Virus record (IMG/VR): IMGVR_UViG_3300046817_000745
Location: 8,873-72,872 of that record
DNA from: a virus
Length of the DNA: 64,000 nucleotides
Direction: 5' to 3' (one strand)
In this document: positions 2,852 through 46,244 of the stretch, piece by piece
Position numbering within the stretch: the first letter of the stretch is position 1
How the letters are laid out: each line of letters begins with the position of its first letter
Translations under genes and position numbers: made by a program
Notes under the pieces: generated by a model
Database searches by the model: none
What the model saw: the letters and a program-made list of their open reading frames with translations, nothing else
Told to the model about the DNA's origin: nothing

Positions 2852-3408
2852 CGATCCCGGTCTTCGCCCCCGGGGACGTCTGGGCGGTGGACGCACCCGG
2901 ATTCGGACGTATCCCGATCATCCTCGGGTCGTGGTTGACCGGGCACCCTGCACCCACCGATCACGTCGTCACCGTCCACCACCAGGACAAGAATGGCGTG
3001 TGGTGGGGCATCGAGGGGCGTCCGTCCGGCGTCGGCTGGGTCGACATGTCCAGCTACTTCGCCACCAGGGCGCAGTTGCGCGCAGCGCGCGGCAACGTCC
3101 GCCAGCCACGCACGGACGCGCAGCGAGCAGCCGTCTGCAAGCTGATGGAGGGCCTGCTCGGCACGAGCTACGACTGGGTCGGTGGGATCGTCGCCGACTT
3201 CGACACCGCGCTGCACGCCGGGGAACTGGCCAAGTTGATCGATCACTGGTGGGGGTGGGACAACGGCGCCGCACAGCCCGCCCACGTGGTCTGTTCCAGT
3301 GCGGCGGCGTGGGCATATCGGAACCTGGGGCTCGTATCCCCGCCGGTGGGGAACGCCGAGCTGGTCACGCCCGCCGACTGGTGGCGGTTCAACGGACAAT
3401 GGCAGTAG
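2848..3408 (+). CDS. Permuted NlpC/P60 (YiiX/YebB-like) hydrolase
   Basis: GTG overlaps the upstream TGA. PGD...DHV (His first), YDW, VVCSSAAAWAY (Cys last), VTPAD. Confidence 0.75.
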   Translation: MTIPVFAPGDVWAVDAPGFGRIPIILGSWLTGHPAPTDHVVTVHHQDKNGVWWGIEGRPSGVGWVDMSSYFATRAQLRAARGNVRQPRTDAQRAAVCKLMEGLLGTSYDWVGGIVADFDTALHAGELAKLIDHWWGWDNGAAQPAHVVCSSAAAWAYRNLGLVSPPVGNAELVTPADWWRFNGQWQ

Positions 3409-3424
3409 AGAGGGATCGAACACC

Positions 3425-3754
3425 ATGAGCGGGCAGTACACCGACGAGCAGCTCGAGGCGGACCACCTCGCGACCGGGCACACCGCACCGCGGATCACCC
3501 CCGAGCACGTGGACGAGATGATCGCCCACGTGCGTTTCTGGCAGCCCGAGGGCACCACGATGACCGTCTGCCTGTTGGAGCTGGTGAACGGGTTCCAGAC
3601 CATCGGGTACTCCGCCGCGGCCAGCTCGGACAACTTCGACGTGGAGATCGGCCGCAACCTTGCCCGCGAGCACGCCCGCAGTCAGATCTGGGTCCTCGAG
3701 GGCTACCTGCTGCGCCAGCAGCTGCACGACCAGGAAACTCAGCAGAAGGTGTAA
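3425..3754 (+). CDS. N4 Gp49/Sf6 gp66 family protein (possible nucleotide-signal sponge)
   Basis: APRITPEH...TTMTVCLLELVNGF..IGYSA.AS.DNFD.EIGR..A...A..QIW.LEGY is the family signature. Confidence 0.85.
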   Translation: MSGQYTDEQLEADHLATGHTAPRITPEHVDEMIAHVRFWQPEGTTMTVCLLELVNGFQTIGYSAAASSDNFDVEIGRNLAREHARSQIWVLEGYLLRQQLHDQETQQKV

Positions 3755-3757
3755 CCG

Positions 3758-4009
3758 GTGACGACGCTGAACGGCGAGATCGCGCGCAGTGAGCCCGGCA
3801 AGCTGAACGAGCAGCTGGCCGGGAAGGTCTGGCTCACGCAGAAACGGGGCGAGTGGCCTGTCACGCTGTGGACGAACGCCAGTGGCGTCCTTCACTGGCT
3901 GGCCGACAACCCCGACGGATCTGCGTGGGAGTACGAGATCACGCCGACCCGCCGGGTGCAGGCCGTTCGGCCGGAGCCCTATCTGCAGGAGGCAGTCAAT
4001 GACGGATGA
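3758..4009 (+). CDS. Hypothetical protein
   Basis: Tightly packed ORF in the operon. Confidence 0.65.
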   Translation: MTTLNGEIARSEPGKLNEQLAGKVWLTQKRGEWPVTLWTNASGVLHWLADNPDGSAWEYEITPTRRVQAVRPEPYLQEAVNDG

Positions 4010-4631
4010 CGCGCGCATCGCCGAGTTCGGTGCGTTCACGCCCGAGGGGCGGCTCACGCCCGGCTACGGCGACCACTACCTGTTCTTCGTCGGGCGCGAC
4101 GACGTGCACGGCATCCTACTCAAGATGCTCACCGCCGAGACCCTCGGGCTCAAGCTGAACATGTTCGGGTACGACGACGACGCGCTCAACGACGCGATCC
4201 TCACGCTGCTGCAGAACCCGAACGTGCGCGTGCAGGGCACCCTGGACAAGTCGCAGTCCGGTGGCGTGCACGAGCGCGCGATCCTCGAGCACGACGCGGC
4301 CAACGATCCTGCGTTCTTCAACTCGTTCGTGGTCGGCCAGTCGGCGACACACCAGATCAGCCATACCAAGGGCGGTGTCCTGCTCGGACAGGGACTCGGC
4401 TTCGAGGGATCCACCAACTGGTCGGCATCGGGTGAAGGCACCGGAATCAAGCTCGACCCGTCACAGAAGCCGGCTCCCGGCTTCAAGGCGCAGAACAACA
4501 CGCTGTTGGTGTCGGCCAACCCGGTGTTCCTGTCCCGGTTCGGCGCCCGGCTGGACACCGAACACATCGCGGCGGTGCAACAGCAGCACCTGAACATGCT
4601 AAACAAGGTGCTGTCCGATCGGGCACACTGA
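3999..4631 (+). CDS. Phospholipase D-superfamily enzyme (single HxK motif, Nuc-like)
   Basis: ISHTKGG...GFEGSTNWS...QNN and an LNMFGY strand. AGGAGG RBS upstream. Confidence 0.8.
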   Translation: MTDDARIAEFGAFTPEGRLTPGYGDHYLFFVGRDDVHGILLKMLTAETLGLKLNMFGYDDDALNDAILTLLQNPNVRVQGTLDKSQSGGVHERAILEHDAANDPAFFNSFVVGQSATHQISHTKGGVLLGQGLGFEGSTNWSASGEGTGIKLDPSQKPAPGFKAQNNTLLVSANPVFLSRFGARLDTEHIAAVQQQHLNMLNKVLSDRAH

Positions 4632-4861
4632 TGTTCCCTGAGCTGCACAGCGAGCTGAGCACCGATATCCCGCCCTACGACGTGCTCAGCCGGGCCCGGA
4701 TGGCGGTCCGGCTGGTCGAGCGGATCATGACGCAGCACGGAGACATCAGGTGCTGCCGGTGCTGGTTCTGCCTCGCGGCGCGCGACCTTGGCTGCCAGGT
4801 GCGCCCGGAGTTCGTCGGAGCCGAGCCGTTCGCACCACTCAGCACGCCCGTGGCACGCTGA
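4631..4861 (+). CDS. Hypothetical Cys-rich protein
   Basis: TGATG overlap. CCRCWFC cluster. Confidence 0.5.
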   Translation: MFPELHSELSTDIPPYDVLSRARMAVRLVERIMTQHGDIRCCRCWFCLAARDLGCQVRPEFVGAEPFAPLSTPVAR

Positions 4862-4865
4862 GTCC

Positions 4866-6584
4866 GTGACAAGCCTGCTGAAAGAGTGGGCACGGCGGAT
4901 GGACCCCGAGGTGGTCGTCGAATCCGCCTCGACCCGCTGGCGGCGCATCGCCCGCCCGGAGCAGCTGCTGCCCGAAGGCGACTGGCGGGTCATCTATTTT
5001 CAGGGCGGCCGGGGAAGCGGCAAGACGAGGTCGGGGTCCGCAGCCCTGGCAGAGCTGATCGAATCCGACCTTGAACTGGACCCGCCCGGGGAGTACGGCA
5101 TCATCGCTCCCACGTACCGGGACGCCTGGACGGTGTGCGTCGAAGGCGAGGCGGGGATCCTGCGGGCGCTGGGCACCACGGCCGGTGAGGTCAAGCACGG
5201 GCTCTCGCGCACGGTCGACTACGCATACCGCAGCTACGGGGAGATCGGCCTGCGCAGCGGGCACGTGATCTACGTCGACTCGGCCGACGACGGCGCACTG
5301 CGCGTGCAGGGCAAGAACCTGCGCGCGGCGTGGGGTGACGAGATCGGCCTGTGGAAACGCTGGCAGATCGCATGGGAGGAGTCGGTCCGGTTCGCCGTCC
5401 GCAAGGGCTCGTCGAAGATCATCGTCACGGGCACGCCGAAGGCGTCCCGCCCGGCACGCAAGCTGGTGCGACGGCTGATCCGCGCCGGACGCGGCGATGA
5501 CGAGTTCGGCGACGGTCCGGTGATCGTGCGTCGGTTGCGCACGATCGACAACATCCTCAACCTGTCCGAATCGTTCTTCCGATCGGTGGTCGGCGCGGCC
5601 AAAGGCACTCGGCTCGAACGCCAGGAGCTCGAGGGCGAGCTGCTCGACGACGTCGCCAATGCGTTGTGGACGCGCGAGATGCTCGAAGCCGCGCAGTGCC
5701 CCGGCGTCGGCGAGGAGGGCGGTCCCGAGTACCTGACATCGATCAAGATAGGCGTCGACCCGTCCGACGGCACCGAGGAGTCCGACGAACAGGCGTACAC
5801 CATCGCCGGCCTCGGGCCGATGCGTGATCAGGTCTACGTCATCGAGTCGTGGGGAGGGCAAGAGGCTCCGGCCCCGTTCGCCCGCCGGTTCCTGATCCGG
5901 GCGGCCGAGCTGGGCGCGACCGTCATCGTGGAGAAGAACCACGGCGGCAAGTGGATGATGCAGCTGATCGAGCAGATACAGCGCGCACTGCTCGAGGAGG
6001 GGGTCATCAAGAACCGGGTACCGGTGGAAGAGATCCACGCGAGCGAATCCAAACGCACTCGAGCCGAGCCGATATCCGGCCTGTACGAACGCGGCATCGT
6101 CAAGCACTGCCAGAAGGTGGCCCGGTTCCAGCTGGCGGATCCAGACACCGGCAAGCTGCAGTGGCGCGAAGAGGCGGAGCGGTTCACCGAACTCGAGGAC
6201 CAGCAGGCGACATTCATCGGGGCAGCCGGCGAGCGCTCCCCCGACCGGCTCGACTCCCTGGTGTGGGCGTGCAGCCCGTTCCTGTCTCTGAGCTTCGGCC
6301 CAGTGACGCGCGCCCGGGTGGCCCAGTGGGTCCGCAGCGGAGGACAACTGGCGGACAGCGTGCCACTGGATCGCGACCGCGGCGGCGACCCGATCGCCGC
6401 GCCGGACCCGCAGGATGAACGTGTCGCGGTGCCGAGGGCGTTGCGGCGCCAGCAGCTCCAGGGTGCGGCCGCGGCTGGTGGCTTCGGCGAGCTGGACGCG
6501 TGGGGTCCGCAGGATCCCGACGATGCACCTGAAAACGGCCGGCGCGGCAATGTGCACTCGTGGTCCGGATCGTCGCCGTTCTAG
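4866..6584 (+). CDS. terL: Terminase large subunit
   Basis: GGRGSGKT Walker A, AWGDE Walker B, TGTPK coupling motif, RNase H-like GVDP...SPDRLD. Start uncertain. Confidence 0.95.
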   Translation: MTSLLKEWARRMDPEVVVESASTRWRRIARPEQLLPEGDWRVIYFQGGRGSGKTRSGSAALAELIESDLELDPPGEYGIIAPTYRDAWTVCVEGEAGILRALGTTAGEVKHGLSRTVDYAYRSYGEIGLRSGHVIYVDSADDGALRVQGKNLRAAWGDEIGLWKRWQIAWEESVRFAVRKGSSKIIVTGTPKASRPARKLVRRLIRAGRGDDEFGDGPVIVRRLRTIDNILNLSESFFRSVVGAAKGTRLERQELEGELLDDVANALWTREMLEAAQCPGVGEEGGPEYLTSIKIGVDPSDGTEESDEQAYTIAGLGPMRDQVYVIESWGGQEAPAPFARRFLIRAAELGATVIVEKNHGGKWMMQLIEQIQRALLEEGVIKNRVPVEEIHASESKRTRAEPISGLYERGIVKHCQKVARFQLADPDTGKLQWREEAERFTELEDQQATFIGAAGERSPDRLDSLVWACSPFLSLSFGPVTRARVAQWVRSGGQLADSVPLDRDRGGDPIAAPDPQDERVAVPRALRRQQLQGAAAAGGFGELDAWGPQDPDDAPENGRRGNVHSWSGSSPF

Positions 6585-6813: not shown

Positions 6814-8394
6814 GTGGCCAAGGCGCAGGGCAGTGAGGCGTCCGACATGGGGAAGGTCTACGCCTTCCCGGACATCAAGCCCGCATCCAAGCGTGAGCTG
6901 CTCGGCAAAGAGCTGGGGACTCAGTTCGACCTCGGCCAGCGGCTGTTCGCCTGGTACGGCGAGGGCGACGTCTTCGACTACGGCGAGTACACCGCGCGGG
7001 ACATGAAAGCGATGTTCCGCCGGGACGGCATCTGCTCGGCCGTCGAATCGGTGCTCACCCTGCCGATCCGCGAAGCCGACTTCTCGATCGAGCCCGCCAG
7101 GGGCGATCAGGGCGAGGCCGAGTTCGCGCGCGGCGTGCTGCTGACTCCGGACACCGACGGCGGCATGATGACCCCCGCGCACGAGCTGGTCGGGCAGGTC
7201 ACCAGCGCGCAGATATACCGCCGGGCGTTCTTCGAGAAGGTGTGGAAGGTCCGCGAGTCGGACGGAAAGATCGTGTACGACAAGATCGCGTTTCGCCCGC
7301 CCGCCACCTGCCAGGCACGGTACAACTCGCGCACCGCTGTCCCGAACGGCTTCCGCCAGCAGGTCTGGCTGTTCGGCGGCAACCTGATGCTCACCAAGGA
7401 ACAGAAGGTCCCCGGCTACGTCGACATCCCGAAGGTCCGTTCCTTCATCCACACACACGGTAAGCACCGCGAGCCGCTGATCGGCGTGTCGGAGATGGAC
7501 GTCAGCTACTGGGTGTATCAGACCAAGATGAAGCTGCTGTTCCTCTGGTACTACTTCCTGGAGAACCAGGCGATGCAGCGCATCGTCGCGTACGGCCCCG
7601 GCCAGCCCGAGGCCAACGCAGCCGCCGATGACATCTCCCAGCTCAAGGGTGCGGGCGTGGTCGGGCTCATCCACGCGCCCGACGGTAAGAAGGCGTTCGA
7701 GGTCATATCCCAGCCACCCGACGCCGGCAAGTTCTTCACCGAAGCCATGATGTTCCTGGAGGGCTGGCAGACGCAGAGCGTGCTGGCCGGATTCATGGGA
7801 CTGGTCGGTGGCGCGACGGCCGGCAAAGGTGCGTACTCGCTCTCTCAGGATCAGAGCGCGTTCTACCTCAAGTCTCGCCAGGCCGTCGCGAAGGAGATCG
7901 CTGAATCGATCTCCTTCGACGTCATGCGCCCGCTGGTGCTGCTCAACTACGGCCCTGGCGCTGCCTTCCCCAACTGGAAGTTCGGCCCGCTGCAGGATGA
8001 ACAGCTGCAAGCGCTGATCACCTTGTTCGGCACACTGGCGGCCGCGCCCGTGCTGCACATCCCCATGCCGGTGTTCGACCTGATCACCGAGCGGATGTCG
8101 ACGATCCTGCAGCTGGACATCGACCAGGTGCACACCGCGCTGGTGTCCACTGCGCAGCAGCGCGCCGAGCAGCTGGCGTCCCAACCGCCTCCGGGCATGC
8201 CGCCCGCGGCCGCGGCGGGGCTCGGGCAGGTGCAGGGTCTAGTCGGCGCGGCGCAGAATCTGACCCGCCAGGCTGCACAGAAACAGGGCGGTGTGCCCGA
8301 AGGACTGCGCGGTGTGCCGTCCGGTGCGCCCGCGCCACCCCCGGCGCCGTCTCGCCTCGGTGCGGGCGGGCAGAATCCGCCAGGGCCGGCATGA
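6814..8394 (+). CDS. Portal protein (Mu gp29/DUF935-like)
   Basis: Follows TerL, 526 aa. D..I.S......LPI, FFEKVW and GAYSLS..Q motifs. Confidence 0.85.
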   Translation: MAKAQGSEASDMGKVYAFPDIKPASKRELLGKELGTQFDLGQRLFAWYGEGDVFDYGEYTARDMKAMFRRDGICSAVESVLTLPIREADFSIEPARGDQGEAEFARGVLLTPDTDGGMMTPAHELVGQVTSAQIYRRAFFEKVWKVRESDGKIVYDKIAFRPPATCQARYNSRTAVPNGFRQQVWLFGGNLMLTKEQKVPGYVDIPKVRSFIHTHGKHREPLIGVSEMDVSYWVYQTKMKLLFLWYYFLENQAMQRIVAYGPGQPEANAAADDISQLKGAGVVGLIHAPDGKKAFEVISQPPDAGKFFTEAMMFLEGWQTQSVLAGFMGLVGGATAGKGAYSLSQDQSAFYLKSRQAVAKEIAESISFDVMRPLVLLNYGPGAAFPNWKFGPLQDEQLQALITLFGTLAAAPVLHIPMPVFDLITERMSTILQLDIDQVHTALVSTAQQRAEQLASQPPPGMPPAAAAGLGQVQGLVGAAQNLTRQAAQKQGGVPEGLRGVPSGAPAPPPAPSRLGAGGQNPPGPA

Positions 8395-9098
8395 CCACCC
8401 CGACGCAGCAGCCCGCCGCACAGCCGCCGCAGCAGACGGGTCCGAGCGATGCGGATCTGGCCGCCGCTGCTGCGGCGGCACTCGCGGCCGCGATCACCGT
8501 CCCGGCCGTCACCGCACTTCTCGCGGGGCTGTACGCCAAAGCGGGTTTCGAGCGGCCGGCGCTGCAGTCGGCGCTACAGATCATCATGGCGATGCCTCCC
8601 GAGGCGACCGGGATCGCTGGGCCGGCCACCGCGCAGGTCGCCTACCTCAACCAGGTCCGTCGCGGGCAGATGGTCGTGTCGATCGGCCGAAGGCTGACAG
8701 GTGACATACGCAGCGCACGGTCGGAGGGCCGCAGCGTGGTCACCGCACTGCTGAACGGCGTGACGCGCGAACGCCGCTACTTCGGGATGCACCGGGACGC
8801 GATCTGGTCCCGCGCGCAGGCGGCCATGGCCGTCGACATGGCGGCTCTGCAGTACGGTCTGCTGCTCGGCTGGCATACCCACCGGGATGACCGGACCACG
8901 CCGGAGTGCCTGGCGGCTGACGGGAAAAACTTCCGCGCCGACTCGATGCCGTTGATCGGCTTCCCGGGCGCGACGCACTCCAAGTGCCGCTGCAAGCCGG
9001 TCGCGCCATACCCCGGCGCGCCGCTGTTGCCGTCGGCGGGCAACACCCCGGCGCGCACTGTCCGGTTGCAGCGTCGGATGGCGCGCAGGATGTCGTAA
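8391..9098 (+). CDS. MuF-like minor head protein
   Basis: W....DDRTTPEC...DGK.F......PG..H..CRC motif directly after the portal. Confidence 0.8.
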   Translation: MTTPTQQPAAQPPQQTGPSDADLAAAAAAALAAAITVPAVTALLAGLYAKAGFERPALQSALQIIMAMPPEATGIAGPATAQVAYLNQVRRGQMVVSIGRRLTGDIRSARSEGRSVVTALLNGVTRERRYFGMHRDAIWSRAQAAMAVDMAALQYGLLLGWHTHRDDRTTPECLAADGKNFRADSMPLIGFPGATHSKCRCKPVAPYPGAPLLPSAGNTPARTVRLQRRMARRMS

Positions 9099-9108
9099 GG
9101 AGGCGGGC

Positions 9109-9558
9109 ATGGAAGATCAGATGCGCCAGTACGCACCCTACCCGGCAGAGCTGGCAGATCTCGTGGCAGGGCTGAAGTACAAGTCCGAGGACGGGTGGAC
9201 GTCCGGATTGGTCGACGTCGAACGCGACCACGCCGGGGTGCACACCGGCCCGGCCGGAGGGCTGACGCTGGTCATCGTCCGGGTGGGGCCGGACACCTAC
9301 GACCACGGGCGCATCCTGCGGGTCGGGCACTACTTCCCGGTCCCGGCCGCCACGTACGATCGCCGATCCTGGCAACGCTGGCTGTTCGAGCGCGTCCGGG
9401 ACGTGGAGACCCACGAGGCCATGGAGCACTTCGTCATCGACGGCAAGCGGCCTTACGCGCCCAGCCACGGCCCGGGCAACGACCCGTACATGGTCCGCGA
9501 GACGGGCACCGACATGGATCGCAGGACCGCGTACACCGGAGAGGTGAACCCGGCATGA
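9109..9558 (+). CDS. Hypothetical phage protein
   Basis: AAGGAGG RBS. HEAME motif. Confidence 0.75.
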   Translation: MEDQMRQYAPYPAELADLVAGLKYKSEDGWTSGLVDVERDHAGVHTGPAGGLTLVIVRVGPDTYDHGRILRVGHYFPVPAATYDRRSWQRWLFERVRDVETHEAMEHFVIDGKRPYAPSHGPGNDPYMVRETGTDMDRRTAYTGEVNPA

Positions 9559-10922
9559 CGTTCGCGCGCAAGACCGAGGTGCCGCTGGTCGCGCTCAAGC
9601 AGCGCACGGCCAGCGGCATGCGTGCTCTGGCAGGCAAGATCGATGAGGAGCTGCCCGGGATGGTCGCGCCGCAGCACCTGCGCGACGCGGCCCGTGCGCT
9701 GGAATCCGGCAACCATGTCGGTGCAAAACGCCATTTGCAGGCTGCAATGCACACCATGACACCGCTGTCCCTCACCCGGCACGGCGTGCTGGACGATCAC
9801 GGCCACTCCCTGGCCAAGGTCAACATGGACCTGATCAATCGGCACCACATGCTGGTCAGTGACCTGGAGGACGGCGAGAACCACAACCAGGGCGTCCGCG
9901 CCACTCCGGCAACCTTCACCCAGCCGAGCACCCTGCCGCTCGGCGGTTCGATGAACTCGCAGCAGGTCCGCGGTGCTGCGAGTGACGGCGGGCCCGGCGC
10001 ACCCAAGACGGTGCGGACCGCGATGGTGCCTGCTCCGCGGCAGAATACCGGCACTGACCGGGCGGTGGCCGGCGGCCCGAAGGCTCCGAGCCGGAAGGAG
10101 AACCAGCTTCCCGCACGTCCGACGCCGCAGGCGGTGTTGTCCTGGGCAGATCTCTACGATCTCATCGAACTATCCACGCAGACGGGCCGACTGGCAGCCA
10201 CACCCGCCCCTCGCGGTCGCCCGGGCGGACCGGGGCTGTACGACGTCAAGGGCATGGGCCACACCGCCTATCTCCAGCAGATCGTGAAGGCGCTGATCCG
10301 TAAGCGGGGAATGCCGCCGGACAAGGCATACGCGATTGCCCGGGGAGCGATTCGCCGCTGGGCGTCTGGCGGTGGCAAGGTGCATCCCGAAGTCCGGGCG
10401 GCTGCAACGGCTGCGGAGAGTGGAGAGCTCGCCCGCCAGAGGCAGGCAAAATCCGACCATGAACACACCGCTGACTCGTGGGCAGGTGTGTTCGACCTGG
10501 TCGGCACTGCGGCGGGTGCTGCTCTCGACCCCCGGACGGTCACAGGCCAGTTCGGGGCCGGAGGCCAGCAACCACCGCCCGCTGCGGCGCCCGCGGCATC
10601 TCCGGCTGAGAAGAAACGTCAACTGCTGGCCCAGGCGGCTGCGGACCGGCAGAAGGCAAGAGACCTGGCCAAGCAGCTGGCCGTGTTAGTGGCCGCAAGC
10701 AAGGCGACGACCAAGACGACTGCGCAAGCCACCAAGGCGGGGGCAACAGGGAAGACAGCCAGCTCAACCCCGGCAAAGAAGGCTGCCACGGCTCCGGCAG
10801 CACAGACTGCCGGAGCAGCCAGGAAACCGACGAAGAAGCAACAGGTTGCTGCACTCAAAACGCAGATAGCCGCACTGCTCGCCAAAGCTGCACAAGAGAC
10901 GGCACAGGCGGCGAAGCTGTGA
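9555..10922 (+). CDS. Modular head-region protein (His-rich N-terminus, small helical domain, Ala/Lys-rich C-terminus)
   Basis: ATGA overlap. Modules are separated by SW..xDL/IELS linkers. Confidence 0.75.
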   Translation: MTFARKTEVPLVALKQRTASGMRALAGKIDEELPGMVAPQHLRDAARALESGNHVGAKRHLQAAMHTMTPLSLTRHGVLDDHGHSLAKVNMDLINRHHMLVSDLEDGENHNQGVRATPATFTQPSTLPLGGSMNSQQVRGAASDGGPGAPKTVRTAMVPAPRQNTGTDRAVAGGPKAPSRKENQLPARPTPQAVLSWADLYDLIELSTQTGRLAATPAPRGRPGGPGLYDVKGMGHTAYLQQIVKALIRKRGMPPDKAYAIARGAIRRWASGGGKVHPEVRAAATAAESGELARQRQAKSDHEHTADSWAGVFDLVGTAAGAALDPRTVTGQFGAGGQQPPPAAAPAASPAEKKRQLLAQAAADRQKARDLAKQLAVLVAASKATTKTTAQATKAGATGKTASSTPAKKAATAPAAQTAGAARKPTKKQQVAALKTQIAALLAKAAQETAQAAKL

Positions 10923-13900
10923 CACGGCCGACTGAGACAGGAATCAGCAGCCAGGCGGCCGATCTGCTACCCGGTCCGGACGATCGAACTGCAGTGGCCA
11001 TGTTCACAGCACACCGGATCGACGACATGCTCACAGCCCTGGCGCACGCCGATGAGCGGATGCAGGCCATGCGCACGTCCGACGGCGAACTACGGCACTA
11101 CCACAGCCTGCACTTCGACGAGCACATCGCGAACGTCATGCAGGACGCAGGCCAGCTCAAGGACAACATGCTGGAGCACTACCCCGCCGAAGCCGCCGAG
11201 TGGCGGGCGCTGGTGCAGGTGATGGATCTGGTGTCGGGGTACAGCCTTAATCCGCGATCCGGCATGATCTCCCTTGACCTGCCGCCCGGTGCGCTGGCTC
11301 CGGTATCGGGTGGCGTGGACGACCACCACATCACGGTGGTCTACCTCGGGCCCGACGTGGATGACGAGGCGTTCGCGGAGGCGTGCCGCCGGGCACAGGA
11401 AGCGGCATCGGCGATGCCGGGGCCATTGACGGGCACAGTCGGCGGAATCGGCTCGTTCAAGCCGTCGGACGGCAGCGATGGGAAGACACCCGCATGGGCC
11501 GGTGTCGTGCTGCCCGGTGCCGACCGGATCCAGGACGCACTGAAAGATCTATCGGCCAGCCAGCACAAGGACTGGAAGCCACACGTCACCGTGGCGTACG
11601 TGGGTCCTGGCGAGTCACTTCCCGACCCGGTCCCGCAGACTCCCGTGACGTTCACACACCTGTCGGTGCACCGCGGCCGGGATGAAGTGGTCCGCTACCC
11701 GCTCGGCGGCGGCCCGGTGGACATGGCGAAGTCGGTGAGCTCGACAGCCAAGGCCGCATCGTTCGCGCACCTCCTGCAGTCGATCGCGTATGACGCATCA
11801 CACACCCAGCGGCACTCGAAGGCGATGCTCGCCGACACAGACGAGACGTGCTGGCAATTCGACGCAGACCACGCCGAGAAGCACATGCACGGCACCGCCG
11901 GGCACGTCCACAAACTCGCCGAGCTGATCCACGACAACTACCCCGCCGAAGAGAAGTGGCTGGGGAAACTGACGGCGAAGGAAGATCTGTCCACCGTCTC
12001 CGACGGGGCGCTGGAGCTCGGCATTGCAGGACAGCTCGGACACGCCGGCACCTCGATCGGCGGACAGGTGCTGCTCGCCGGCTGGGAGCAGCAGACTCGC
12101 GACGCGCAGGGGCGGTGGGTGAAAGGTCTGCGTTTCTCGGTCAAGCCCTACGGCGTGGTCGAGGACAGGTTCGCAGGCGGGAATGAGAAGGGCGAGATTT
12201 GGAACAAGGTCCCGACAGCGCACCGGATTACGGCGCACCACGGCAAGACCGAGGTCGGGCACCTGGACTGGAACGTCCACCACGGCGGCGTCGACATGGT
12301 GCACACCGAGGAGAAATTCCGCGGCCGCGGCGTGGCCATGAACCTGTTCGACCGGGCTCGGGAGTACGCCGCTGAAAACGGCCTGATACTGCCGAACACC
12401 GAGCACGCGATTCCGATCTCGCCCTCGGGGCTCGGCTTCCACGAGGCACTGTCACAGCGCAACCGTCCCGGCTCCGAGGTGACCGGTCAGGTGCCTCTGA
12501 TCCCCCGAAAGGGCGCCAACCGAACCACCGCGCTGTCACTCGAGCTGGGCAGCTGGCACGATGCCTGGGTCCACGAGATGCGCGGCGCGCACGGCGAGTG
12601 GATCCGCGGCGCGGAAGGACAGGGCCCTGCCCCGAGCGACCGCACCCCCTACCGGGTTCCGCCGCACAGCCGACTGGTCAACCTGCGCTCGCCGTACCCC
12701 GACCCGGCCGACCATCCGTTCTTCAAGGCACACCCGATGAGCAGCGCCAACATCGTGCACGCCTACTCGGTGGCCACTGAGCAGCAGAAGGCGCAGGGCA
12801 TGCGCTGGTATGCCGACGCCGGTCTGCTCGGCGCCGCAATCGCGCACGGCGATCACCATCTCGGGGCCGGGCTGCTCTCGGCCTACTCACCGCAGACGTC
12901 GTGGCCGATCAACATGTTCAACGCCGCGCGCTCGGTCGAGATGGGACGTCCGATCGGCCCGCACGAGGGCACGACCGTGATGACCAGTCACGCCAACGCC
13001 GCACGCAAGATCATGGATGGCGCCAGCTTTGATGAGGCACTGCCCGGCCCGAAGACCAACGCATTCGCCCGGCTGATCGAGACCGAGGGGAAAGACAAGC
13101 CGGATGATCCGTTCGGGGAGGTTGTGGTCGACAGACATGCTGTGTCCGTGGCGGCCGGAGAACGGCTCAGTGACAAGGAACCGGTTCCGATCGGTGATGA
13201 CAGGTACTACCAGGTGGTCGCCGACGAATATCGCAAGGCAGCGATCGATGCCAGCCGGCGGGAGGGCTACACGATCTCGCCCAGCCAGATGCAGGCGATC
13301 ACTTGGCTGGTGCAGCAGTCGGCGAATGAGGCACAGGACGCTCATACGCCGTCAAAGGGTTCAGCGGCGTCGATGGCGAAAGGCCGGGTCACGCGAACTG
13401 CCAACGCCTGGAAGAACTGGCTCGCTTACGCCCGGCTGCAGAACGTCGCTACCGCATCCGGCACTACAGCCCTTGCGACAGAGCTAGAGCTGCACAACGC
13501 CTGGATGACCGAGCTGCGGGATGAGCGCGGTCGATTCGCGACGTCGGGCGGTGTGATGTCCGAGCACGTCAACCCGGAAGGGTTCTCGCTGCACCAGCGC
13601 ACGGGACAACCGCCGCGCGGCGGATTCATGGTCTCCCTGCCGGGACACACGCACCAATACCCGGACTCGATCATGAAAGACAAGCACAAGCTCGCCGAGG
13701 CGCTCGACAAGATGCTGATGGACGAACGTGAGACCTTCAGCAAACCTGATGTCTACTTGGGTGGGTGGGTCAGCGACGGTATGCTGTGGTTGGACCCGTC
13801 GGAGAACGTCGCCGACCGTGATGAGGCGGTCAAGACGGGGCAGAGCCGGGATCAGGTCGCAATCTGGGACGTCGTAGGGGGTCGGGAAATTGACACCGGA

Positions 13901-14056
13901 GGAACAGGCGGGGCCACCACCGAGCACGCCACCCCGGGCATTTCTGGCAGTCCCCCCGGGCTACGCGGACTTACCCGAAGCCGAGCGCAAGGCCGAAGCC
14001 CTGAAGCTGGCGCAGGCATTGCAGGACAGGCAATTAGGGTCGATCTCGGGCGATAA
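10919..14056 (+). CDS. Multidomain head-region protein: His-rich repeats, 2H phosphoesterase, GNAT, HhH-GPD-like domain, unknown domain
   Basis: HITV/HVTV (2H), FRGRGVA (GNAT motif A), LPGPKT...VVDRH (Nth-like K/D), plus repeated linkers. Confidence 0.8.
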   Translation: MTRPTETGISSQAADLLPGPDDRTAVAMFTAHRIDDMLTALAHADERMQAMRTSDGELRHYHSLHFDEHIANVMQDAGQLKDNMLEHYPAEAAEWRALVQVMDLVSGYSLNPRSGMISLDLPPGALAPVSGGVDDHHITVVYLGPDVDDEAFAEACRRAQEAASAMPGPLTGTVGGIGSFKPSDGSDGKTPAWAGVVLPGADRIQDALKDLSASQHKDWKPHVTVAYVGPGESLPDPVPQTPVTFTHLSVHRGRDEVVRYPLGGGPVDMAKSVSSTAKAASFAHLLQSIAYDASHTQRHSKAMLADTDETCWQFDADHAEKHMHGTAGHVHKLAELIHDNYPAEEKWLGKLTAKEDLSTVSDGALELGIAGQLGHAGTSIGGQVLLAGWEQQTRDAQGRWVKGLRFSVKPYGVVEDRFAGGNEKGEIWNKVPTAHRITAHHGKTEVGHLDWNVHHGGVDMVHTEEKFRGRGVAMNLFDRAREYAAENGLILPNTEHAIPISPSGLGFHEALSQRNRPGSEVTGQVPLIPRKGANRTTALSLELGSWHDAWVHEMRGAHGEWIRGAEGQGPAPSDRTPYRVPPHSRLVNLRSPYPDPADHPFFKAHPMSSANIVHAYSVATEQQKAQGMRWYADAGLLGAAIAHGDHHLGAGLLSAYSPQTSWPINMFNAARSVEMGRPIGPHEGTTVMTSHANAARKIMDGASFDEALPGPKTNAFARLIETEGKDKPDDPFGEVVVDRHAVSVAAGERLSDKEPVPIGDDRYYQVVADEYRKAAIDASRREGYTISPSQMQAITWLVQQSANEAQDAHTPSKGSAASMAKGRVTRTANAWKNWLAYARLQNVATASGTTALATELELHNAWMTELRDERGRFATSGGVMSEHVNPEGFSLHQRTGQPPRGGFMVSLPGHTHQYPDSIMKDKHKLAEALDKMLMDERETFSKPDVYLGGWVSDGMLWLDPSENVADRDEAVKTGQSRDQVAIWDVVGGREIDTGGTGGATTEHATPGISGSPPGLRGLTRSRAQGRSPEAGAGIAGQAIRVDLGR

Positions 14057-14151: not shown

Positions 14152-14177
14152 CAGGTGCGCACGGGAGGTTGGGCCAC

Positions 14178-15182
14178 ATGGCGACGTACGCCGGAACGCG
14201 GCCGGGTTCAGGCGACAACTTCAAGAAGTTGTCGGGAACCCTGGCAGCCCGCGGAGCGCACAATCCCGATGCCCTGGCGGCCTGGATCGGCCGGGGCAAG
14301 TACGGGCGCAAGGGCATGTCGAAACTGTCCGCCAAGGGCGGCCACCACGCACACAGCAACCCTCTCGGGCTCGCCTCGGAAGAAGGCGGCGAGCACAGCC
14401 ACGTCGTGACGCACAGCCACGAGTTCGCATCGCTCGCGCACACGCACGAGGACGCCGGGGCCGGATACGAGCCCGGCGGGAGTATGCGCGAGGGCCAGGG
14501 TTCGTCCGGCGGTGTGGGTGACTTCGAGAGCGGCTCGTCCAAGCTGCGCACGCCGCAGGAGGGTGACCAGCGCTCGACCGGCTTCCGCAGTCAGCGTCTC
14601 GGCGTCGGCGCGCGCGCCGGGAACTACGGATCCATGTCCAACACCGGCGGCCGGGCTGTGTCCCTGGCGCAGCGGCTGCCCGTGACCAGCCCGTGGGACG
14701 TGGTGATCAGCCGGGGCATCGACGGCAGCGCGCAGGTGAGGCACCGCCGCGGCGGTACGGGTATCGGATCGATCCGGCGTATAGACGGCGGCGGATGGAC
14801 TGCCACCCCCGACGGCGGCAGTCCGTTGCCGGGCCACCCGCACCAGAGGGCCGCGCTCATGGAGCTGCTCGGCACCTGGAACCGCAGTGCGACCACACCC
14901 GACCGGGCCGGGGTGCCATACGCCCAGCCGGCTCAGCAGACTCCCTTGATGGAGAAGTTCGGTGTTCCGGCGATCCGCGCGCTGGCCACTCCGACGGTGT
15001 CGGCCGGAGACGGTCCGCGGACCACCATGGCTGACGCCAGCTCCGGGTCCGACGACACGGACGGCCTGACGCCGAAGGGCAAGGCGATCTACGCCAAGCT
15101 GCGGAGCCGCGGCTTCCCGGCCGAGCGGGCACTCGCGTTCGCCAAGCGCGCGCAGAACATGGGTCCGAAGGCCGCAGCGTGA
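14178..15182 (+). CDS. Modular head-region protein
   Basis: GGGAGG RBS. Basic N-terminal module, His-rich patch, C-terminal YAKLRSRGFPAERALAFA helix pair. Confidence 0.75.
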   Translation: MATYAGTRPGSGDNFKKLSGTLAARGAHNPDALAAWIGRGKYGRKGMSKLSAKGGHHAHSNPLGLASEEGGEHSHVVTHSHEFASLAHTHEDAGAGYEPGGSMREGQGSSGGVGDFESGSSKLRTPQEGDQRSTGFRSQRLGVGARAGNYGSMSNTGGRAVSLAQRLPVTSPWDVVISRGIDGSAQVRHRRGGTGIGSIRRIDGGGWTATPDGGSPLPGHPHQRAALMELLGTWNRSATTPDRAGVPYAQPAQQTPLMEKFGVPAIRALATPTVSAGDGPRTTMADASSGSDDTDGLTPKGKAIYAKLRSRGFPAERALAFAKRAQNMGPKAAA

Positions 15183-16363
15183 CCACCGCCGTCCTCACCC
15201 CATTCACCGGCACACGGGCTGTGGAACTGGGCAACCGGGTGTGGCGCAAACGTGTCCTGCCCGTCGGCGATGTCGAGTACAAGGGCCGGATGCTGCACTT
15301 CACCCGCGAGTACCTGGCCGGGCTGGCGCAGGCGTTTCACGAGCGTGCCTATGATCAGGTGCCGTTCCAGCTGGCCGGGGATGACAACCGGCACACTAAC
15401 GACGTCGAGCGGTTCGGCGGCCAGATCACCTCTTTCGACCTGGAGAAGGACGGGCTGTATCTCAAGCTCGAGGCCACCGAGCGCGGTGAGAAGGTCTTGA
15501 AGGACAATCCGAATCTCGGAGTGTCCGCCAGGATCGTGGAGGACTACGCGCGCAGCGACGGCAAGTTTTTCACCGCAGCCGTACAGCACGTGCTCGGCAC
15601 GCTCGATCCGCGCATCCCCGCACTTGGCGGATGGCAGGCAGTCGAAGCGTCCAACGACGCCGACACAGTCTTGGATCTTTCAACATCGGTATTCGCGGGC
15701 GAGGAGAAGCCAGTGCCTGAATTCACCACCGAGGAGCGCGGGCGGCTCGCGAAGCTGCTGCAGATCCCCGAGGACAAGATCGATGCCTTGACGAAGCTGG
15801 CCGGCACGGACCTCGATCTGCTGGCCGGCGAGGGCCAGGGTGTGGGCAGCGCGGAGCTGAGTGACGAAGAGCTGGCGCAGCTGATCGCCGACATGCCCGA
15901 GGAAGAGCTGGCCGCACTGCAGGCCGAGTTCGAGAACGAGGTCGCGGCCGCGGCGCCCGGGCTGTCCAATCAGACCGCGATGGCGATCGAGATGGCGAAC
16001 GTGCGCGCCGACGAGAACGAGCGGCAGCTCTCGGTCATCACCGCTGAGCTGGACGCCCAGCGTTTCGCCGCGGAGAAGGCCCGGTTCGTGCGCGACTCCG
16101 GCGTACCGCCGTTCATCATGGACCTGGCGCAGCCGCTGCTGGAGGGGACCGGGCACACCGTCGACCTGTCGAATGGCAAGGCGGTCGACGCCGGGCAGAT
16201 CGTGCGCAAGATCCTCACCGAGTACGCCAAGGCCGCCCGGATGATGGACCTGTCGATCGAGATGGGTTCGCCGATGGACGAGCCCGACCAGCAGGGCGCC
16301 GCCGCGGAAGCGCGCGACGACATCGTGGGCCGGGCCCGTGAACAGATGTTCGGGATGCGGTAG
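15179..16363 (+). CDS. Prohead protease/scaffold fusion (Mu I-like)
   Basis: N-terminal H (NRHTND) and S (GVSARI) assemblin-like pattern. Acidic helical C-terminus. Upstream of the capsid genes. Confidence 0.8.
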   Translation: MTTAVLTPFTGTRAVELGNRVWRKRVLPVGDVEYKGRMLHFTREYLAGLAQAFHERAYDQVPFQLAGDDNRHTNDVERFGGQITSFDLEKDGLYLKLEATERGEKVLKDNPNLGVSARIVEDYARSDGKFFTAAVQHVLGTLDPRIPALGGWQAVEASNDADTVLDLSTSVFAGEEKPVPEFTTEERGRLAKLLQIPEDKIDALTKLAGTDLDLLAGEGQGVGSAELSDEELAQLIADMPEEELAALQAEFENEVAAAAPGLSNQTAMAIEMANVRADENERQLSVITAELDAQRFAAEKARFVRDSGVPPFIMDLAQPLLEGTGHTVDLSNGKAVDAGQIVRKILTEYAKAARMMDLSIEMGSPMDEPDQQGAAAEARDDIVGRAREQMFGMR

Positions 16364-16584: not shown

Positions 16585-17088
16585 ATGTCTGCGGTTCTCC
16601 CGCACTACAAGCAAGGGCCGATCAACAAGCAGGTGTCCGCGCTGGTCATCGGCGGAATGATCGTGGCTCCGACGACCGCCGGCACGAACCCGAGCGCCGA
16701 TCTTTCCGTGGCCCCGTGTTCGGCCGCCAACACCCGGTACTACCTGGGCGTGGCCGGCAAGGACGCCAACGTCATCGCGGTGCAGACCGGCGCGGCCAAC
16801 ACGTACGGCCAGCCCGCGATCGACATCAGCGTGCTGGACGACTACACCGCCGTCTACTACGGCGGTGTGGACATCTGGGTCTGGTATCAGGGCGCGGTGG
16901 CGGAGGGTGATCTTCTGATCATCAGCGCCACCACGGCCGGAACGGTGATCACCAACGGCGCCGGCACCGACCCGACGAAGATCGTGGGCAAGTGCACACA
17001 CCCCGGCGGAGTCAGCGCCGGCATGCTCGTCGCCAACACGCTCATCGGCGGCAGCACATACTTCCTGGGCCGAGCCAGGATCTTCTGA
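16585..17088 (+). CDS. Capsid decoration/cement-like protein
   Basis: Immediately before the major capsid gene. LGVA..DA, V..GD.L...G.V and IVGK beta-tulip-like pattern. Confidence 0.65.
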   Translation: MSAVLPHYKQGPINKQVSALVIGGMIVAPTTAGTNPSADLSVAPCSAANTRYYLGVAGKDANVIAVQTGAANTYGQPAIDISVLDDYTAVYYGGVDIWVWYQGAVAEGDLLIISATTAGTVITNGAGTDPTKIVGKCTHPGGVSAGMLVANTLIGGSTYFLGRARIF

Positions 17089-17100: not shown

Positions 17101-18012
17101 ATGCCGACAGGTGCACGCGGTTATTCGGATTCACCCCGGATAACCGTCAATGAGCTGCTGAAGGACCCGCTGGTCATCCCGGCGTTGATCCTGGACATCA
17201 CGCAGAACGAGTTCATCGTGGACTCGGTGCTGCGTAACGGCGGAGCGGCGCCGTCCGGCGCGGTCAGGTACTCCGAGTCGACGCCGCTGTACGCGGACGA
17301 CTACCCCGAGGTGCGAGCCGAGTTCGGCGAGGTCCCGGTCGTGCCGACCTCGATCGGCATCCCGCGCGTGGTGTTCACCCACGAGCGCGCGATGGCGATC
17401 ATGGTCTCGGACGAGATGCGCCGACGCCAGACCATCGACCCGGTGACCCGCCAGCTGCTGCAGGTCAAGAACACGATGGTCTACAGCTGGAACACGGCGT
17501 TCTACTCCGCCGTGGTGGCCAACGCCTCGATCCAGACCCTCGCGGTGTCCAATGCCTGGGCCAGCGCTTCGGCGACGATCCGCGCGGACATCGCGCAGGC
17601 GTGCTACCTGGTGGAGAACGCCAACATCGTCTCTCCGTCCGGCGTGACGCAGTGGCTGGGCTTCGAAGCCGACACGCTGATCATCAACCACGGCACCAAG
17701 AACTCGCTGCTGCAGAGCTCGACGTTCGCCGCGCCGTACATCGGCGACATCGCGTCGGAGAACCTGCTGTACACCGGCGTGTTGCCACAGAAGATCTTCA
17801 ACCTGGACGTGCTGGTCTCTCGGCAGGTCCCGGCCGGCAACGCGATCGTCATGCAGCGGCACCGGGCCGGCTTCTACGCCGATGAGCTGCCGTTCCTCGC
17901 GGGTCCGCTCTACCGGGACGAGCCGCGCAAGACCTGGCGCACGGACACCCAACGGGCCAGCGCCATCGGCCTGGACCAGCCTCTGGCCATCACGCTGCTG
18001 TCAGGAGTGTGA
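17101..18012 (+). CDS. Major capsid protein (HK97 fold)
   Basis: 303 aa, strong codon bias, VRAEFGEVP E-loop, DQP.AI..L C-terminus. Confidence 0.85.
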   Translation: MPTGARGYSDSPRITVNELLKDPLVIPALILDITQNEFIVDSVLRNGGAAPSGAVRYSESTPLYADDYPEVRAEFGEVPVVPTSIGIPRVVFTHERAMAIMVSDEMRRRQTIDPVTRQLLQVKNTMVYSWNTAFYSAVVANASIQTLAVSNAWASASATIRADIAQACYLVENANIVSPSGVTQWLGFEADTLIINHGTKNSLLQSSTFAAPYIGDIASENLLYTGVLPQKIFNLDVLVSRQVPAGNAIVMQRHRAGFYADELPFLAGPLYRDEPRKTWRTDTQRASAIGLDQPLAITLLSGV

Positions 18013-23469: not shown

Positions 23470-23738
23470 TCCTCTGCATTGTCCGCCGGCACCTGCACAT
23501 CGGACCGGCCGAGTGGGACGCGCTGAGCTGGGACTACCAGCGGATGTACCTAGAGCACCTGGACGAGGATGAGGAGATCCCGTTCAGCCTGGGCACTGCG
23601 GACCCCGTCGAGTCACCAGGACACGGCGCCGGGCCGTCGGTCAGAGAGAACGTGGACACCGGCGCGTCCGTGCTGGATATCAGCGCCATGCGGGCCGAGC
23701 TCGAGGAGGCGCGGCGTGTGCGGAAAGGCGGTTCCTGA
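23403..23738 (+). CDS. Tail assembly chaperone gpT-like part, expressed by -1 frameshift
   Basis: The -1 frame is open from C CCG GAA (23403-23409) to 23738 and has no good own start. AEWDALSW motif. Confidence 0.65.
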   Translation, partial: PGSRTRRWDSGGDTAAVRSRRVILCIVRRHLHIGPAEWDALSWDYQRMYLEHLDEDEEIPFSLGTADPVESPGHGAGPSVRENVDTGASVLDISAMRAELEEARRVRKGGS

Positions 23739-26700: not shown

Positions 26701-27199
26701 CGCGATGCGGGAATCCGGATGGTCCAACACCGCGAACAACCCGTCATCCGGCGCGTACGGCATCGCGCAGGCCCTGCCGTACACCAAGATGCCGAAAGCG
26801 GCCTGGCCGCCGTCCGCAGGCGGCAGCGCCGACCCGGCCACACAGATCATGTGGATGATCAGTTACATGCTCGGACGGTACGGTGGGCCGGTCGGCGCGG
26901 CCGCGCACGAGCAGCAGTTCAACTGGTACGGCGGCGGATTGGACGCGGTCTTCAGCCACCCCACCGTGATCGGTGTCGGCGAGCGCGGGCCCGAGGCGGT
27001 TAGCGTCACACCACTCGCGTCGTACGGGCTGCGCGGTAAAGACCGCCTCGATCAGCTCATCGCGGCGCTCGGCAACGACCGGCCGATGATCGGCACGTAT
27101 CAGACGGCGTTCTACGGCACCGGAGACACCGCGTACGCCATGCGCGAGCTGGCTCGCACACTGCGCGTGTCCCGGCTGCAGGCGGTGGTGGGAAGATGA
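23738..27199 (+). CDS. Tape measure protein with C-terminal lytic transglycosylase-like domain
   Basis: 1153 aa of periodic Pro/Leu and Trp repeats. RESGW...A.NPSSGAYGIAQ lysozyme-like motif. Confidence 0.95.
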   Translation: MFDAGAIEATLTVHLDQFNRDLDKAEERIRRIEAEKHIVKISAVFDTASMTRARKMFADLDMQISRDAAMRLKTSPQGSVLGSLNALFSPHPVAGSPTAQQSGQQGLLGKMFNTPGGGAGRPGPAAGPQQQPPGRTTGPAPGPGGVGPAMTVPGQQRDSKGRFTSGGGGGGSSNSLLFKLLSQMLGGDKRAQDVVSALTPNTKALTGFINKLGSAAGPGILGISAKRASQVGVGGSLLGALPALLGPLAALGVGGAGAGVLALGAKTLIGTKQDPGQLYNPAQKAGAALQGGLKTAAQPLVKPLEQAFSQIPSLIKSITPALTQLFAGASTLIQPFLQGITALAKDVLPGLGQAFRVVAPLMEPFLSSIGQLFKNLLPGLLSMLKAVQPILGVLEGVVGRVGTALGGLFSAIAPVMQPASVLLKAVLDLVLSLLPIIGQLAAIFASALAPAFQMFAGLLNQLVPVLIPIGKILAQLAGAVLVDLVGILQPLVQLIGALAPSFGILAKVLGDVFNALENTGIFQVLASALESVVGPLASFINMLVAQLAPFIPPLLQIFQSLVNAGINVFVTAILTLLPILTQLVQALLPPLLKIIVALTPTIAQLAQLMARGLGDAIVAIANVLAPLLVLIVKLIVGVVNWLNSTHLLLPVLGLLMLAIAPIPTAIGLIALAIGYLAEHWQRIWGDIKQWAKDAWDFIYNGFGKYLLPLLGPVGLIALGVIELLKHWKQVWGDIKQVGLDFYQWIWKDFGAKISNFITKTVPSWFDTAVGAIKTAWNKVEDVFKVPVNFLINTVYDGGIRRFWNDVMGAIGLGSLDLPLIKGLASGGKIHNGTGPRADDVLIRASRGETVVSAAHSAMLAPLFAAVGVPGYAGGGVVGDVGGVVAALLTGNTGALTNSLMDLVGVSKGTSGDLAQMVTGIPKKIIGDAVHWVSGSIGGIISALFGTKSAGSALAGIAGVVPGIANARLAQLMYPKWASGSDWAAWNYVAMRESGWSNTANNPSSGAYGIAQALPYTKMPKAAWPPSAGGSADPATQIMWMISYMLGRYGGPVGAAAHEQQFNWYGGGLDAVFSHPTVIGVGERGPEAVSVTPLASYGLRGKDRLDQLIAALGNDRPMIGTYQTAFYGTGDTAYAMRELARTLRVSRLQAVVGR

Positions 27200-39743: not shown

Positions 39744-39842
39744 CTTCCCTGATCCCTTCGCCTGAGTCCGCCTGCGGCGGTCTCACTGATGACAACATTA
39801 GCAGTTCCCCGGCCACACCACAAGTCGGGGGCGGACACGGAA

Positions 39843-39872
39843 GAGGGCCCTTCGTTGGCGCGAAGGGCCCTC
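39843..39872 (-). terminator. Terminator-like hairpin
   Basis: Perfect 12-bp inverted repeat GAGGGCCCTTCG / CGAAGGGCCCTC. Confidence 0.7.
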
Positions 39873-39889
39873 GCAAACCGGATGCTGCA

Positions 39890-40013
39890 CCTGGCGTGAG
39901 AAGCGGTGTTTCCTGTGCTCCGACTCCAGTAGAGGAGTCGAAGTGTGCACCTCGGCCGCGCGGCTCCGGGGGGATGGAGAGCTCACGCGCGGCCGAGGGC
40001 GTCTTTCACCAGG
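39890..40013 (-). ncRNA. Putative structured RNA or ssDNA element (three-way junction)
   Basis: Closing stem plus a 13-bp perfect hairpin and a 10-bp hairpin whose G-U pair favours the minus strand. Confidence 0.4.
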
Positions 40014-40018
40014 CCAGC

Positions 40019-41065: not shown

Positions 41066-41068
41066 GAT

Positions 41069-45447: not shown

Positions 45448-45474
45448 TCTTCCTCCCTGATCTCGCTGCCGACC

Positions 45475-45939: not shown

Positions 45940-45950
45940 TTTGATCCTCT

Positions 45951-46241: not shown

Positions 46242-46244
46242 CGG

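Follow-up and report, generated by a model that had tools for sequence, protein, structure and literature searches.

The 1045-aa gene and its modules

The window analysed here, i.e. the whole stretch of 64,000 nucleotides, corresponds to bases 8873-72872 of IMG/VR record IMGVR_UViG_3300046817_000745, a complete viral record of 72,872 bp with direct terminal repeats; G+C content in the window is 67% and no tRNA genes were found in it. The present analysis concerns one gene of its head module (10919..14056, + strand), whose 1045-aa product is composed of enzyme-like modules joined by a repeated two-part peptide, hereafter called the tag-linker. The original prediction, made from the DNA letters, had described a head-operon gene stringing together unrelated enzyme-like modules, and this description was confirmed for the open reading frame (ORF), the head context and the module matches. 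By comparison with related loci and proteins, the product is very probably a polyvalent, virion-associated modular protein.

The ORF starts with a GTG codon that overlaps the stop codon of the upstream gene (9552-10922) and stays open over 1045 codons with no internal stop, giving a protein of 112.8 kDa with an isoelectric point (pI) of 5.9. The gene call of the collection for the same protein begins at M28 (1018 aa). Upstream of this Met, residues 8-17 ('GISSQAADLL'; 10940..10969, +) resemble by inspection the first half of the tag-linker, and their counterparts in two relatives read 'GITGQLHKL' (L002) and 'VSISSQATT' (L003). Because the residues upstream of M28 are conserved in both relatives, the GTG start at 10919 is favoured and the long form was kept.

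The tag-linker is an element of about 30 aa that precedes each module after the first. Its first half follows the pattern (T)IS(G/E)Q-x-(L/V)-(E/D)-L-(G/A) and its second half W-x-H-E-x-R-(D/G)-x-x-G-(R/E)-W, in which Arg and Gly are invariant and Trp nearly invariant in the linker alignment. Linker 1 (residues 361-403; 11999..12127, +) is made of ALELG, two degenerate first-half repeats and then WEQQTRDAQGRW, linker 2 (residues 536-562; 12524..12604, +) reads TTALSLELGSWHDAWVHEMRGAHGEW and linker 3 (residues 846-874; 13454..13540, +) reads TTALATELELHNAWMTELRDERGRF. The two-part strings that had been quoted ahead of each of the last three modules are all present, and a strict regular expression applied to the six frames of the window gave exactly three matches, all in this ORF. 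With a hidden Markov model of the linker, the window copies scored 35.8-37.8 bits and the runner-up among 47 window proteins 6.5 bits. Comparison of the three window copies led to rejection of the idea that they are DNA repeats of one another, which implies that their likeness is maintained at the protein level. The linkers that flank the third module (2 and 3) have a predicted local distance difference test (pLDDT) below 50 in the AlphaFold model described below, and linkers are probably disordered. A tblastn search of linker 2 against phages gave no match at E ≤ 1; a degenerate DNA pattern for WEHExR..G.W found only two contigs among species genomes (a Solirubrobacterales and a Bryobacteraceae metagenome-assembled genome) and nine viral stretches. 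The runner-up of the model search was the tape measure protein, in which 'QQRDSKGRFTSGGGGGG' (window 24200-24250, residues ~155-170) looks like the linker second half and like a remote form, PRDxxGRW-T/S-x-GGG, found in other proteins.

The first unit comprises a His-rich region (residues 28-110; 11000..11248, +), which has no family match and can be called helical only as a guess, a 2H phosphoesterase module (residues 111-270; 11249..11728, +) and a second His-rich region (residues 271-360; 11729..11998, +). An internal repeat between the two His-rich regions was considered and not established (BLASTP E 0.08). The 2H module carries HITV at 137 and HVTV at 222, the only H-x-T-[VIL] motifs of the whole protein. 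Pfam 2_5_RNA_ligase2 (PF13563) matched residues 137-234 at a borderline 27.2 bits (cut-off 27), with scores of up to 32.9 bits on the 2H domains of relatives; LigT_PEase matched more weakly, PHROG 'RNA ligase' families matched too, and the sole match of an NCBIfam scan of the protein was a weak 2',5'-ligase. With two H-x-T motifs and a model at its cut-off, membership of residues 111-270 in the 2H phosphoesterase superfamily, as had been predicted, is upheld as a borderline assignment.

The next module (residues 404-535; 12128..12523, +) is probably a GNAT acetyltransferase, although below the Pfam cut-offs: its RGRGVA loop at 468 occurs once in the protein, PF00583 scored 15.6 bits (cut-off 20.7), and a weak PDB match of the loop was to arylalkylamine N-acetyltransferases (phmmer E 0.44). 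The C-terminal module (residues 875-1000; 13541..13918, +), put down in the original prediction as alpha/beta, matched phrog_17808 on residues 929-987 and, in the ESM atlas, solely unnamed viral clusters. It is followed by a Gly/Arg-rich tail (13919..14053, +) ending IAGQAIRVDLGR, which resembles the linker first half. A PDB sequence search with the whole 1045-aa protein returned nothing useful.

The third module (residues 563-845; 12605..13453, +) is all-alpha and matched Pfam DUF7178 on residues 609-800 (E 3.9e-37). An AlphaFold2 model was built from a 36-sequence alignment (mean pLDDT 82.7, above 90 in the all-alpha core; predicted template modelling score, pTM, 0.79). Foldseek of this model against the PDB gave no match at E ≤ 1e-3, and a PDB sequence search with the DUF7178 profile gave nothing useful. 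In a VIA-align wide comparison with 48,161 PDB representatives, the top 22 rows were all members of the HhH-GPD superfamily, starting with Tm1821 Ogg (3n0u; Z 10.1, root-mean-square deviation 4.0, 178 aligned), followed by MagIII and the DUF2419 queuine-salvage enzyme (Z 8.9), then by OGG1, EndoIII, AGOG, MutY and AlkA down to Z 5.3; beyond row 22, Z falls to 4.0 or less. Helical models can get such Z-scores by chance, and the fold was accepted because the top rows are all of one family and a gap in Z follows them. The predicted HhH-GPD-like domain is thus confirmed as an HhH-GPD DNA-glycosylase fold in the model. No match to PF00730 was found in the whole phage genome at E ≤ 0.01 (14 of 14 control genomes match), and a short stretch with an invariant Lys (PGPKT 709) and an invariant Asp (VVVDRH 735) of the DUF7178 alignment can be aligned by eye with 'PGAARKTAN...VVVDTH' of an Nth-like protein (hhalign E 0.06, 21 columns); given these two results, HhH-GPD membership fails at the level of sequence. 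The two invariant residues would fall where EndoIII has its catalytic Lys and Asp. A full-text literature search for 'DUF7178' found nothing, and the HhH-GPD fold of this family, the commonest cargo unit in the comparisons below, appears undescribed. DUF7178 is also encoded as a stand-alone gene by marine podoviruses and Streptomyces phages (matches in phages of Prochlorococcus, Synechococcus, Roseobacter, Anabaena and Streptomyces), and a few depositors name these genes glycosylases, in agreement with the fold found.

Tag-linkers in other proteins and in head modules

From five phage loci, 25 copies were combined in a linker profile and compared with 1.84 billion (1.84e9) representative proteins. 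The profile retrieved 441 cluster representatives (clusters of 50% identity) at E ≤ 1e-3, including 80 matches at E ≤ 1e-10 and 3 at E ≤ 1e-30. Length, copy number and spacing were computed on the best 150 of these 441 representatives: the median length is 1088 aa, at least two linker copies are present in 145 (mostly 2-8, with a maximum of 8 at the threshold used), and successive linkers are spaced by a median of 239 aa (interquartile range 167-303). The linker lies at the protein start (within 45 residues) in 81 of the 150, typically as 'MTxISEQxELAAWEHExRxxxGxW', which bears out the expectation that modules begin with a peptide of the RDxxGRF/W type. Remote members have the second half only, as '(K)YS(D/E)DQPRDxHGRW(T/S)xGGG', which is repeated up to nine times in proteins of 2770-3849 aa.

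Among 19 close homologues of the 1045-aa protein, from which 42 linker copies were aligned, only parts are shared, other modules being Zeta toxin, ADP-ribosyltransferase (ART), Abhydrolase_8 and PI3/PI4-kinase-like domains, and the same linker stands before each module. In order to follow the modules, 163 proteins were cut at their linkers and the inter-linker segments were clustered with strict mutual coverage: the 595 segments fell into 307 clusters. Sixty of the 163 proteins contain the DUF7178 cluster, whose ordinal position ranges from 1 to 8 and whose neighbours form 45 contexts; the C-terminal module of the window is present in 20 of the 163, at ordinal positions 1-4. The two His-rich regions and the 2H domain form a single shuffling unit (7 proteins, always first), and the GNAT-like unit is a singleton. 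In 10 of 10 compared proteins the Pfam DUF7178 match begins 44-61 residues past the linker Arg, wherever the module starts in the chain (from residue 74 to residue 1029). The original prediction had proposed to ask whether modules swap while linkers are conserved, and this is what the clustering found. The tag-linker was shown, at the level of sequence comparison, to be a module-autonomous element: in hundreds of related proteins it stands at the N-terminus of the cargo units that shuffle.

The cargo was surveyed in a sample of 44 representatives (every third id, P0127-P0267). DUF7178 was counted 17 times, Abhydrolase_8 5, Zeta_toxin 4, ADPrib_exo_Tox 4, ART-PolyVal 3, Arr-ms 2, ParB_N 2, Acb1 1 (E 3e-39) and NUDIX 1. 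Head domains were also found within these linker-bearing proteins, namely Phage_Mu_F (3), portal (1) and Peptidase_S78 (1); in P0147 a MuF domain lies between linkers. The 2H module of the window shares 66% identity over 166 aa with a 2H domain situated behind the portal domain of P0036, and the same 2H domain is found in chains of the type portal-2H-MuF (P0031) and portal-2H-NUDIX (P0022).

In the window, the 1045-aa gene is preceded by genes for the terminase large subunit TerL (4788-6584), a Mu-type portal (6814-8394), a MuF-like head protein (8391..9098, +; Pfam Phage_Mu_F 29.7 bits for a cut-off of 29.6), a small ORF and a basic protein of 456 aa and pI 10.5 (9552..10922, +), which forms the 5' edge of a variable island. 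The 3' edge of the island is a basic protein of 337 aa and pI 10.2 (14169..15182, +), followed by a 394-aa candidate prohead protease with an acidic scaffold-like C-terminal half (15179..16363, +), a 167-aa gene (16585-17088), the major head protein (MCP; 17101-18012) and, farther downstream, the tape measure protein (23738-27199). This order (TerL, portal, MuF, basic protein, variable island, basic protein, protease/scaffold candidate, 167-aa gene, MCP) is kept in the window and in 11 related IMG/VR loci, among which the MCP is 87-96% identical and the island is hypervariable. The smallest island (~1.2 kb, L003) codes for one 370-aa protein ending '...TISSQAIELSSGTSPLYG' and the largest (~9.5 kb, L005) for a 2127-aa protein with 6 linkers and extra ORFs. 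Locus L002 has its chain divided between two genes at a linker: '...QAVELNITGQLGHGR' closes the first ORF, and 'MADDSISGQVEFASWEHQARDAHGRW' opens the second, which is an ART.

Comparison of these loci also showed tag-linkers at the head of stand-alone head-module proteins: in L022 a linker occurs at residue 18 of the open frame with the MuF homologue, and in L018 at residue 39 of the one with a homologue of the 337-aa protein. The 456-aa protein of the window has degenerate linker-like elements (LIELS..., VFDLVG...DPRTVTGQF), and full linkers are found inside its homologues in relatives; its C-terminus is an Ala/Lys-rich tail, as in DNA-binding internal proteins. Among cultured phages, the Araceli group of Streptomyces comes closest; its members are distant (39% identity for the 394-aa protein, 35% for the MCP) and have in the same slot a 1169-aa protein annotated as an ADP-ribosyltransferase; the 1045-aa gene itself had no megablast match among 50,697 phage records. 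Taken with its domains, this context indicates that the gene product is a polyvalent protein, encoded by a siphophage of actinobacterial type whose head module is Mu-like. The comparisons give good support to capsid loading, and the original claim that the protein is loaded into the head is strongly suggested by its head slot, by the linker on MuF and by the 2H-portal fusion, evidence that is comparative in nature.

The 394-aa protein has a highly conserved N-terminal domain of ~165 aa, matched by 874 clusters, and 120 listed homologues are 65-100% identical to it. Its His72 and Ser116 are invariant in 24 sequences. In the ESM atlas, its best cluster is 80% PF10123 Mu-like_Pro (score 0.95, 178 shared features), and its arrangement is like that of Mu I/Z, in which a protease is fused to the scaffold. 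Gene 15179-16363 may accordingly be viewed, as a lead only, as a candidate Mu gpI-like prohead protease. A regular expression for sites resembling the linker first half gave 12 matches in the 79 ORFs of the window, 5 of them in the 394-aa protein, where conservation of 3 sites extends to phage Araceli.

Loading, cleavage and ejection: a proposed mechanism and its alternatives

The mechanism proposed is the following. The tag-linker would bring the cargo into the prohead, where the Mu gpI-like protease-scaffold protein (15179-16363) would cut the linker first half, at or beside its conserved acidic residue. The freed modules would keep the RDxxGRW peptide at their new N-terminus, stay with the DNA and be ejected with it into the host cell, where they could act early in host takeover or in counter-defence. 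The 2H module might act, for example, on nucleotide or RNA 2',3'/2',5' phosphodiester substrates, and the DUF7178 module, for example, on an N-glycosidic bond in DNA or a nucleotide. A probability of about 0.5 was assigned to the whole sequence of events from loading through cleavage to ejection and action, a figure that is a compromise between the odds of its steps. Of these steps, the use of the tag as a loading signal is slightly favoured, an anti-defence function of at least one module comes a little short of even odds, and proteolytic separation of the modules at the tag is a tentative proposal. In a stronger version, judged rather improbable, the bipartite peptide would be a portable signal of a kind not described before, which would 'load and release' the cargo of phage capsids. 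In it, the first half would serve as prohead-targeting peptide and protease site, and the second half would be retained in order to hold the enzyme with the DNA or to guide it through the tail, an idea that touches the weak linker copy in the tape measure protein.

Several findings weigh against this mechanism, which as a whole rests on comparison of sequences and models and treats the 1045-aa product as a candidate virion protein. As to the predicted protease, the ESM-atlas lead and the His72/Ser116 pair stand, and the sequence libraries are silent: the 394-aa protein matched nothing in Pfam (E ≤ 10), NCBIfam or PDB sequences save an unrelated DUF, and none of its 120 listed homologues has a Pfam domain. 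The regular expression for first-half sites was chosen after viewing both proteins. With a position-specific scoring matrix that drew on no linker of the window itself, the 394-aa protein had 4 of the 30 best sites, which is modest, and unrelated genes scored equally high; in the protease homologue of L005, the N-terminal motif that matches ELG reads 'AESVG'. A linker-like C-terminal end was rejected as a feature of the class (1 of 150; close relatives only). In many proteins the first-half motif lies 2-3 residues from the initiator Met with no module to separate, a position equally suited to a binding tag and to a cleavage site; by analogy with T4, this placement fits either a targeting peptide that would be cut off or a binding tag that would be kept. 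On the side of function, Acetyltransf_CG (PF14542) reaches 25.8 bits on residues 438-489 for a cut-off of 30, so that the predicted GNAT module keeps its RGRGVA loop and lacks a Pfam match above threshold. The analogy of the 2H module with T4 Acb1 was found to be weak: the Pfam Acb1 model PF23474, known to be in the library because it matches another linker-bearing protein at E 3e-39, had no match to the 1045-aa protein at E ≤ 1, and by Pfam the module is not an Acb1-family member. Finally, most cargo families (ART, Zeta toxin, hydrolases) would be as much at home in host takeover or as toxins as in counter-defence.

The strongest competitor, which is nevertheless unlikely, is that the 113-kDa chain is packaged and ejected in one piece, the linkers being flexible spacers that bind a head component (scaffold, portal, basic internal proteins or DNA), with several copies providing avidity for loading or threading. 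The position of the whole bipartite element at the extreme N-terminus in the 81 of 150 proteins, where there is no upstream module to remove, suits such a chain, as does the disorder of the linkers in the model. Electrostatic co-packing would also be suited by the charges of the locus, since the neighbours are very basic (net charges of +29 for 9552-10922, +14 for 14169-15182 and +13 for 8391-9098; pI 10.2-10.8) and the polyprotein is acidic (-27), the protease/scaffold candidate having a net charge of -28. Against an uncleaved chain, the first half ends with a conserved hydrophobic-acidic-Leu-small motif that resembles the Glu-directed sites of prohead proteases such as T4 gp21 and those of giant phages. 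The same modules also exist as separate genes in relatives, which indicates that their physical linkage is not needed for function. Likenesses in favour of ejection as a single chain are N4 vRNAP and some plasmid polyvalent proteins, and several polyvalent proteins are transferred or packaged unprocessed according to the main text of PMC5512222.

The shuffling itself could be the whole explanation if the linker were only a recombination joint, giving in-frame neutral junctions for cassette exchange in the manner of the pre-toxin motifs of polymorphic toxins, with no role in loading or processing. Extreme shuffling (45 neighbour contexts for one module) and the hypervariability of the island between nearly identical head genes agree with this idea, and it is compatible with the other readings. 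As a sufficient account it was considered improbable, in view of the lack of common DNA repeats among the three window linkers, of peptide-level conservation in 441 clusters (50% identity), Arg and Gly being invariant and Trp nearly so, and of the occurrence of the tag at the very start of proteins encoded by stand-alone genes, which points to selection on the peptide itself. Still a little less probable is that the protein is not a virion component and acts as a late cytoplasmic multi-enzyme in the producing cell, e.g. in protection of progeny or exclusion of other phages, the linker then signalling another process such as self-cleavage or chaperone binding. The modules are indeed enzymes able to act in the producing cell; what speaks against this is the unvarying place that the gene occupies, in every related locus, between MuF and the protease/scaffold candidate, the tag on MuF homologues, the MuF, portal and S78 domains within tagged polypeptides, and the fusion of the 2H domain to portal proteins.

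The capsid targeting sequence (CTS) of phage T4 has an LxE site and is cut by the gp21 prohead protease. N-termini of linker-bearing proteins such as 'MTSISEQVELAAW...' have a similar length and end in a hydrophobic-acidic motif. The T4 internal proteins are diverse defence proteins that share only the CTS, which loads them into the prohead core (PMC3012670), and the likeness to IPI, IPII, IPIII and Alt is that of diverse cargo with one short conserved N-terminal peptide. By sequence, a short conserved N-terminal peptide is likewise carried by unrelated cargo here (81 of 150; 307 segment clusters). In contrast to T4, the tag is repeated inside a long chain, its second half (RDxxGRW) would stay on the cargo, it has no sequence likeness to the T4 CTS, and the head module is Mu-like rather than T4-like. 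Many internal head proteins of giant phages are cut after Glu at short motifs, some at several sites (PMC10052503); there, cleavage strips N-terminal propeptides (SPN3US gp245, phiKZ gp175) and not enzyme modules, and both phages and proteases are unrelated to those considered here.

Iyer et al. 2017 (PMC5512222) had already put forward the overall concept, under the name 'polyvalent protein'. The main text of that paper describes, in phages and conjugative elements, proteins with unrelated effector domains in one polypeptide encoded among virion genes; its catalogue includes 2H and GNAT, with 2H fused to MuF or portal, and it predicts packaging and injection and proposes that 2H domains degrade defence-signalling nucleotides. 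The 1045-aa protein agrees with this description, with at least two predicted unrelated effector-type domains in the product of a phage gene located among virion genes. It differs in that the processing set out there relies mainly on internal zincin-like or assemblin-like peptidase domains, none of which is found in the 1045-aa protein, and the repeated bipartite tag-linker has no mention in the main text, supplements not included. In the MuF polymorphic toxins of (pro)phages (Jamet et al. 2017, PMC5576092), a head-morphogenesis domain carries a variable C-terminal effector or toxin; in the window, by contrast, MuF has a gene of its own and several modules make up the cargo chain, and the main text of that paper mentions no junction motif. 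A full-text literature search for strings of the RDxxGRF type returned nothing, and a widespread tag-linker that delimits cargo modules appears undescribed.

Polyvalent proteins are predicted to be a main route by which phages deliver ready-made effectors. Apart from T4 and a few giant phages, no account of the loading, separation and release of multi-enzyme chains is known to us. A tag conserved at the border of every module offers a concrete handle on loading and release, together with a simple rule to split hundreds of huge hypothetical proteins into cargo units, among them DUF7178 and a bona fide Acb1. If the stronger version, with a portable 'load and release' signal, were true, hundreds of phage lineages would possess a plug-and-play cargo system, and chosen proteins could be packaged into phage heads.

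Other features of the window and of a related locus

The 167-aa gene (16585-17088), located between the protease/scaffold candidate and the MCP, is without family match and beta-rich by eye, and may code for a decoration protein; the Araceli gene at this position is annotated 'scaffolding protein'. An endolysin-like gene (904-1842) lies upstream of the terminase. A leftward block (38487-51748) groups replication genes (family A DNA polymerase, helicase and a Sak4-like annealing protein), with a primase-like gene beside it on the + strand. In the related locus L003, the terminase (2944-5586, ~880 aa) matches the TerL of the window in two pieces separated by ~900 nt, a gap suggestive of an inserted element, possibly an intein.

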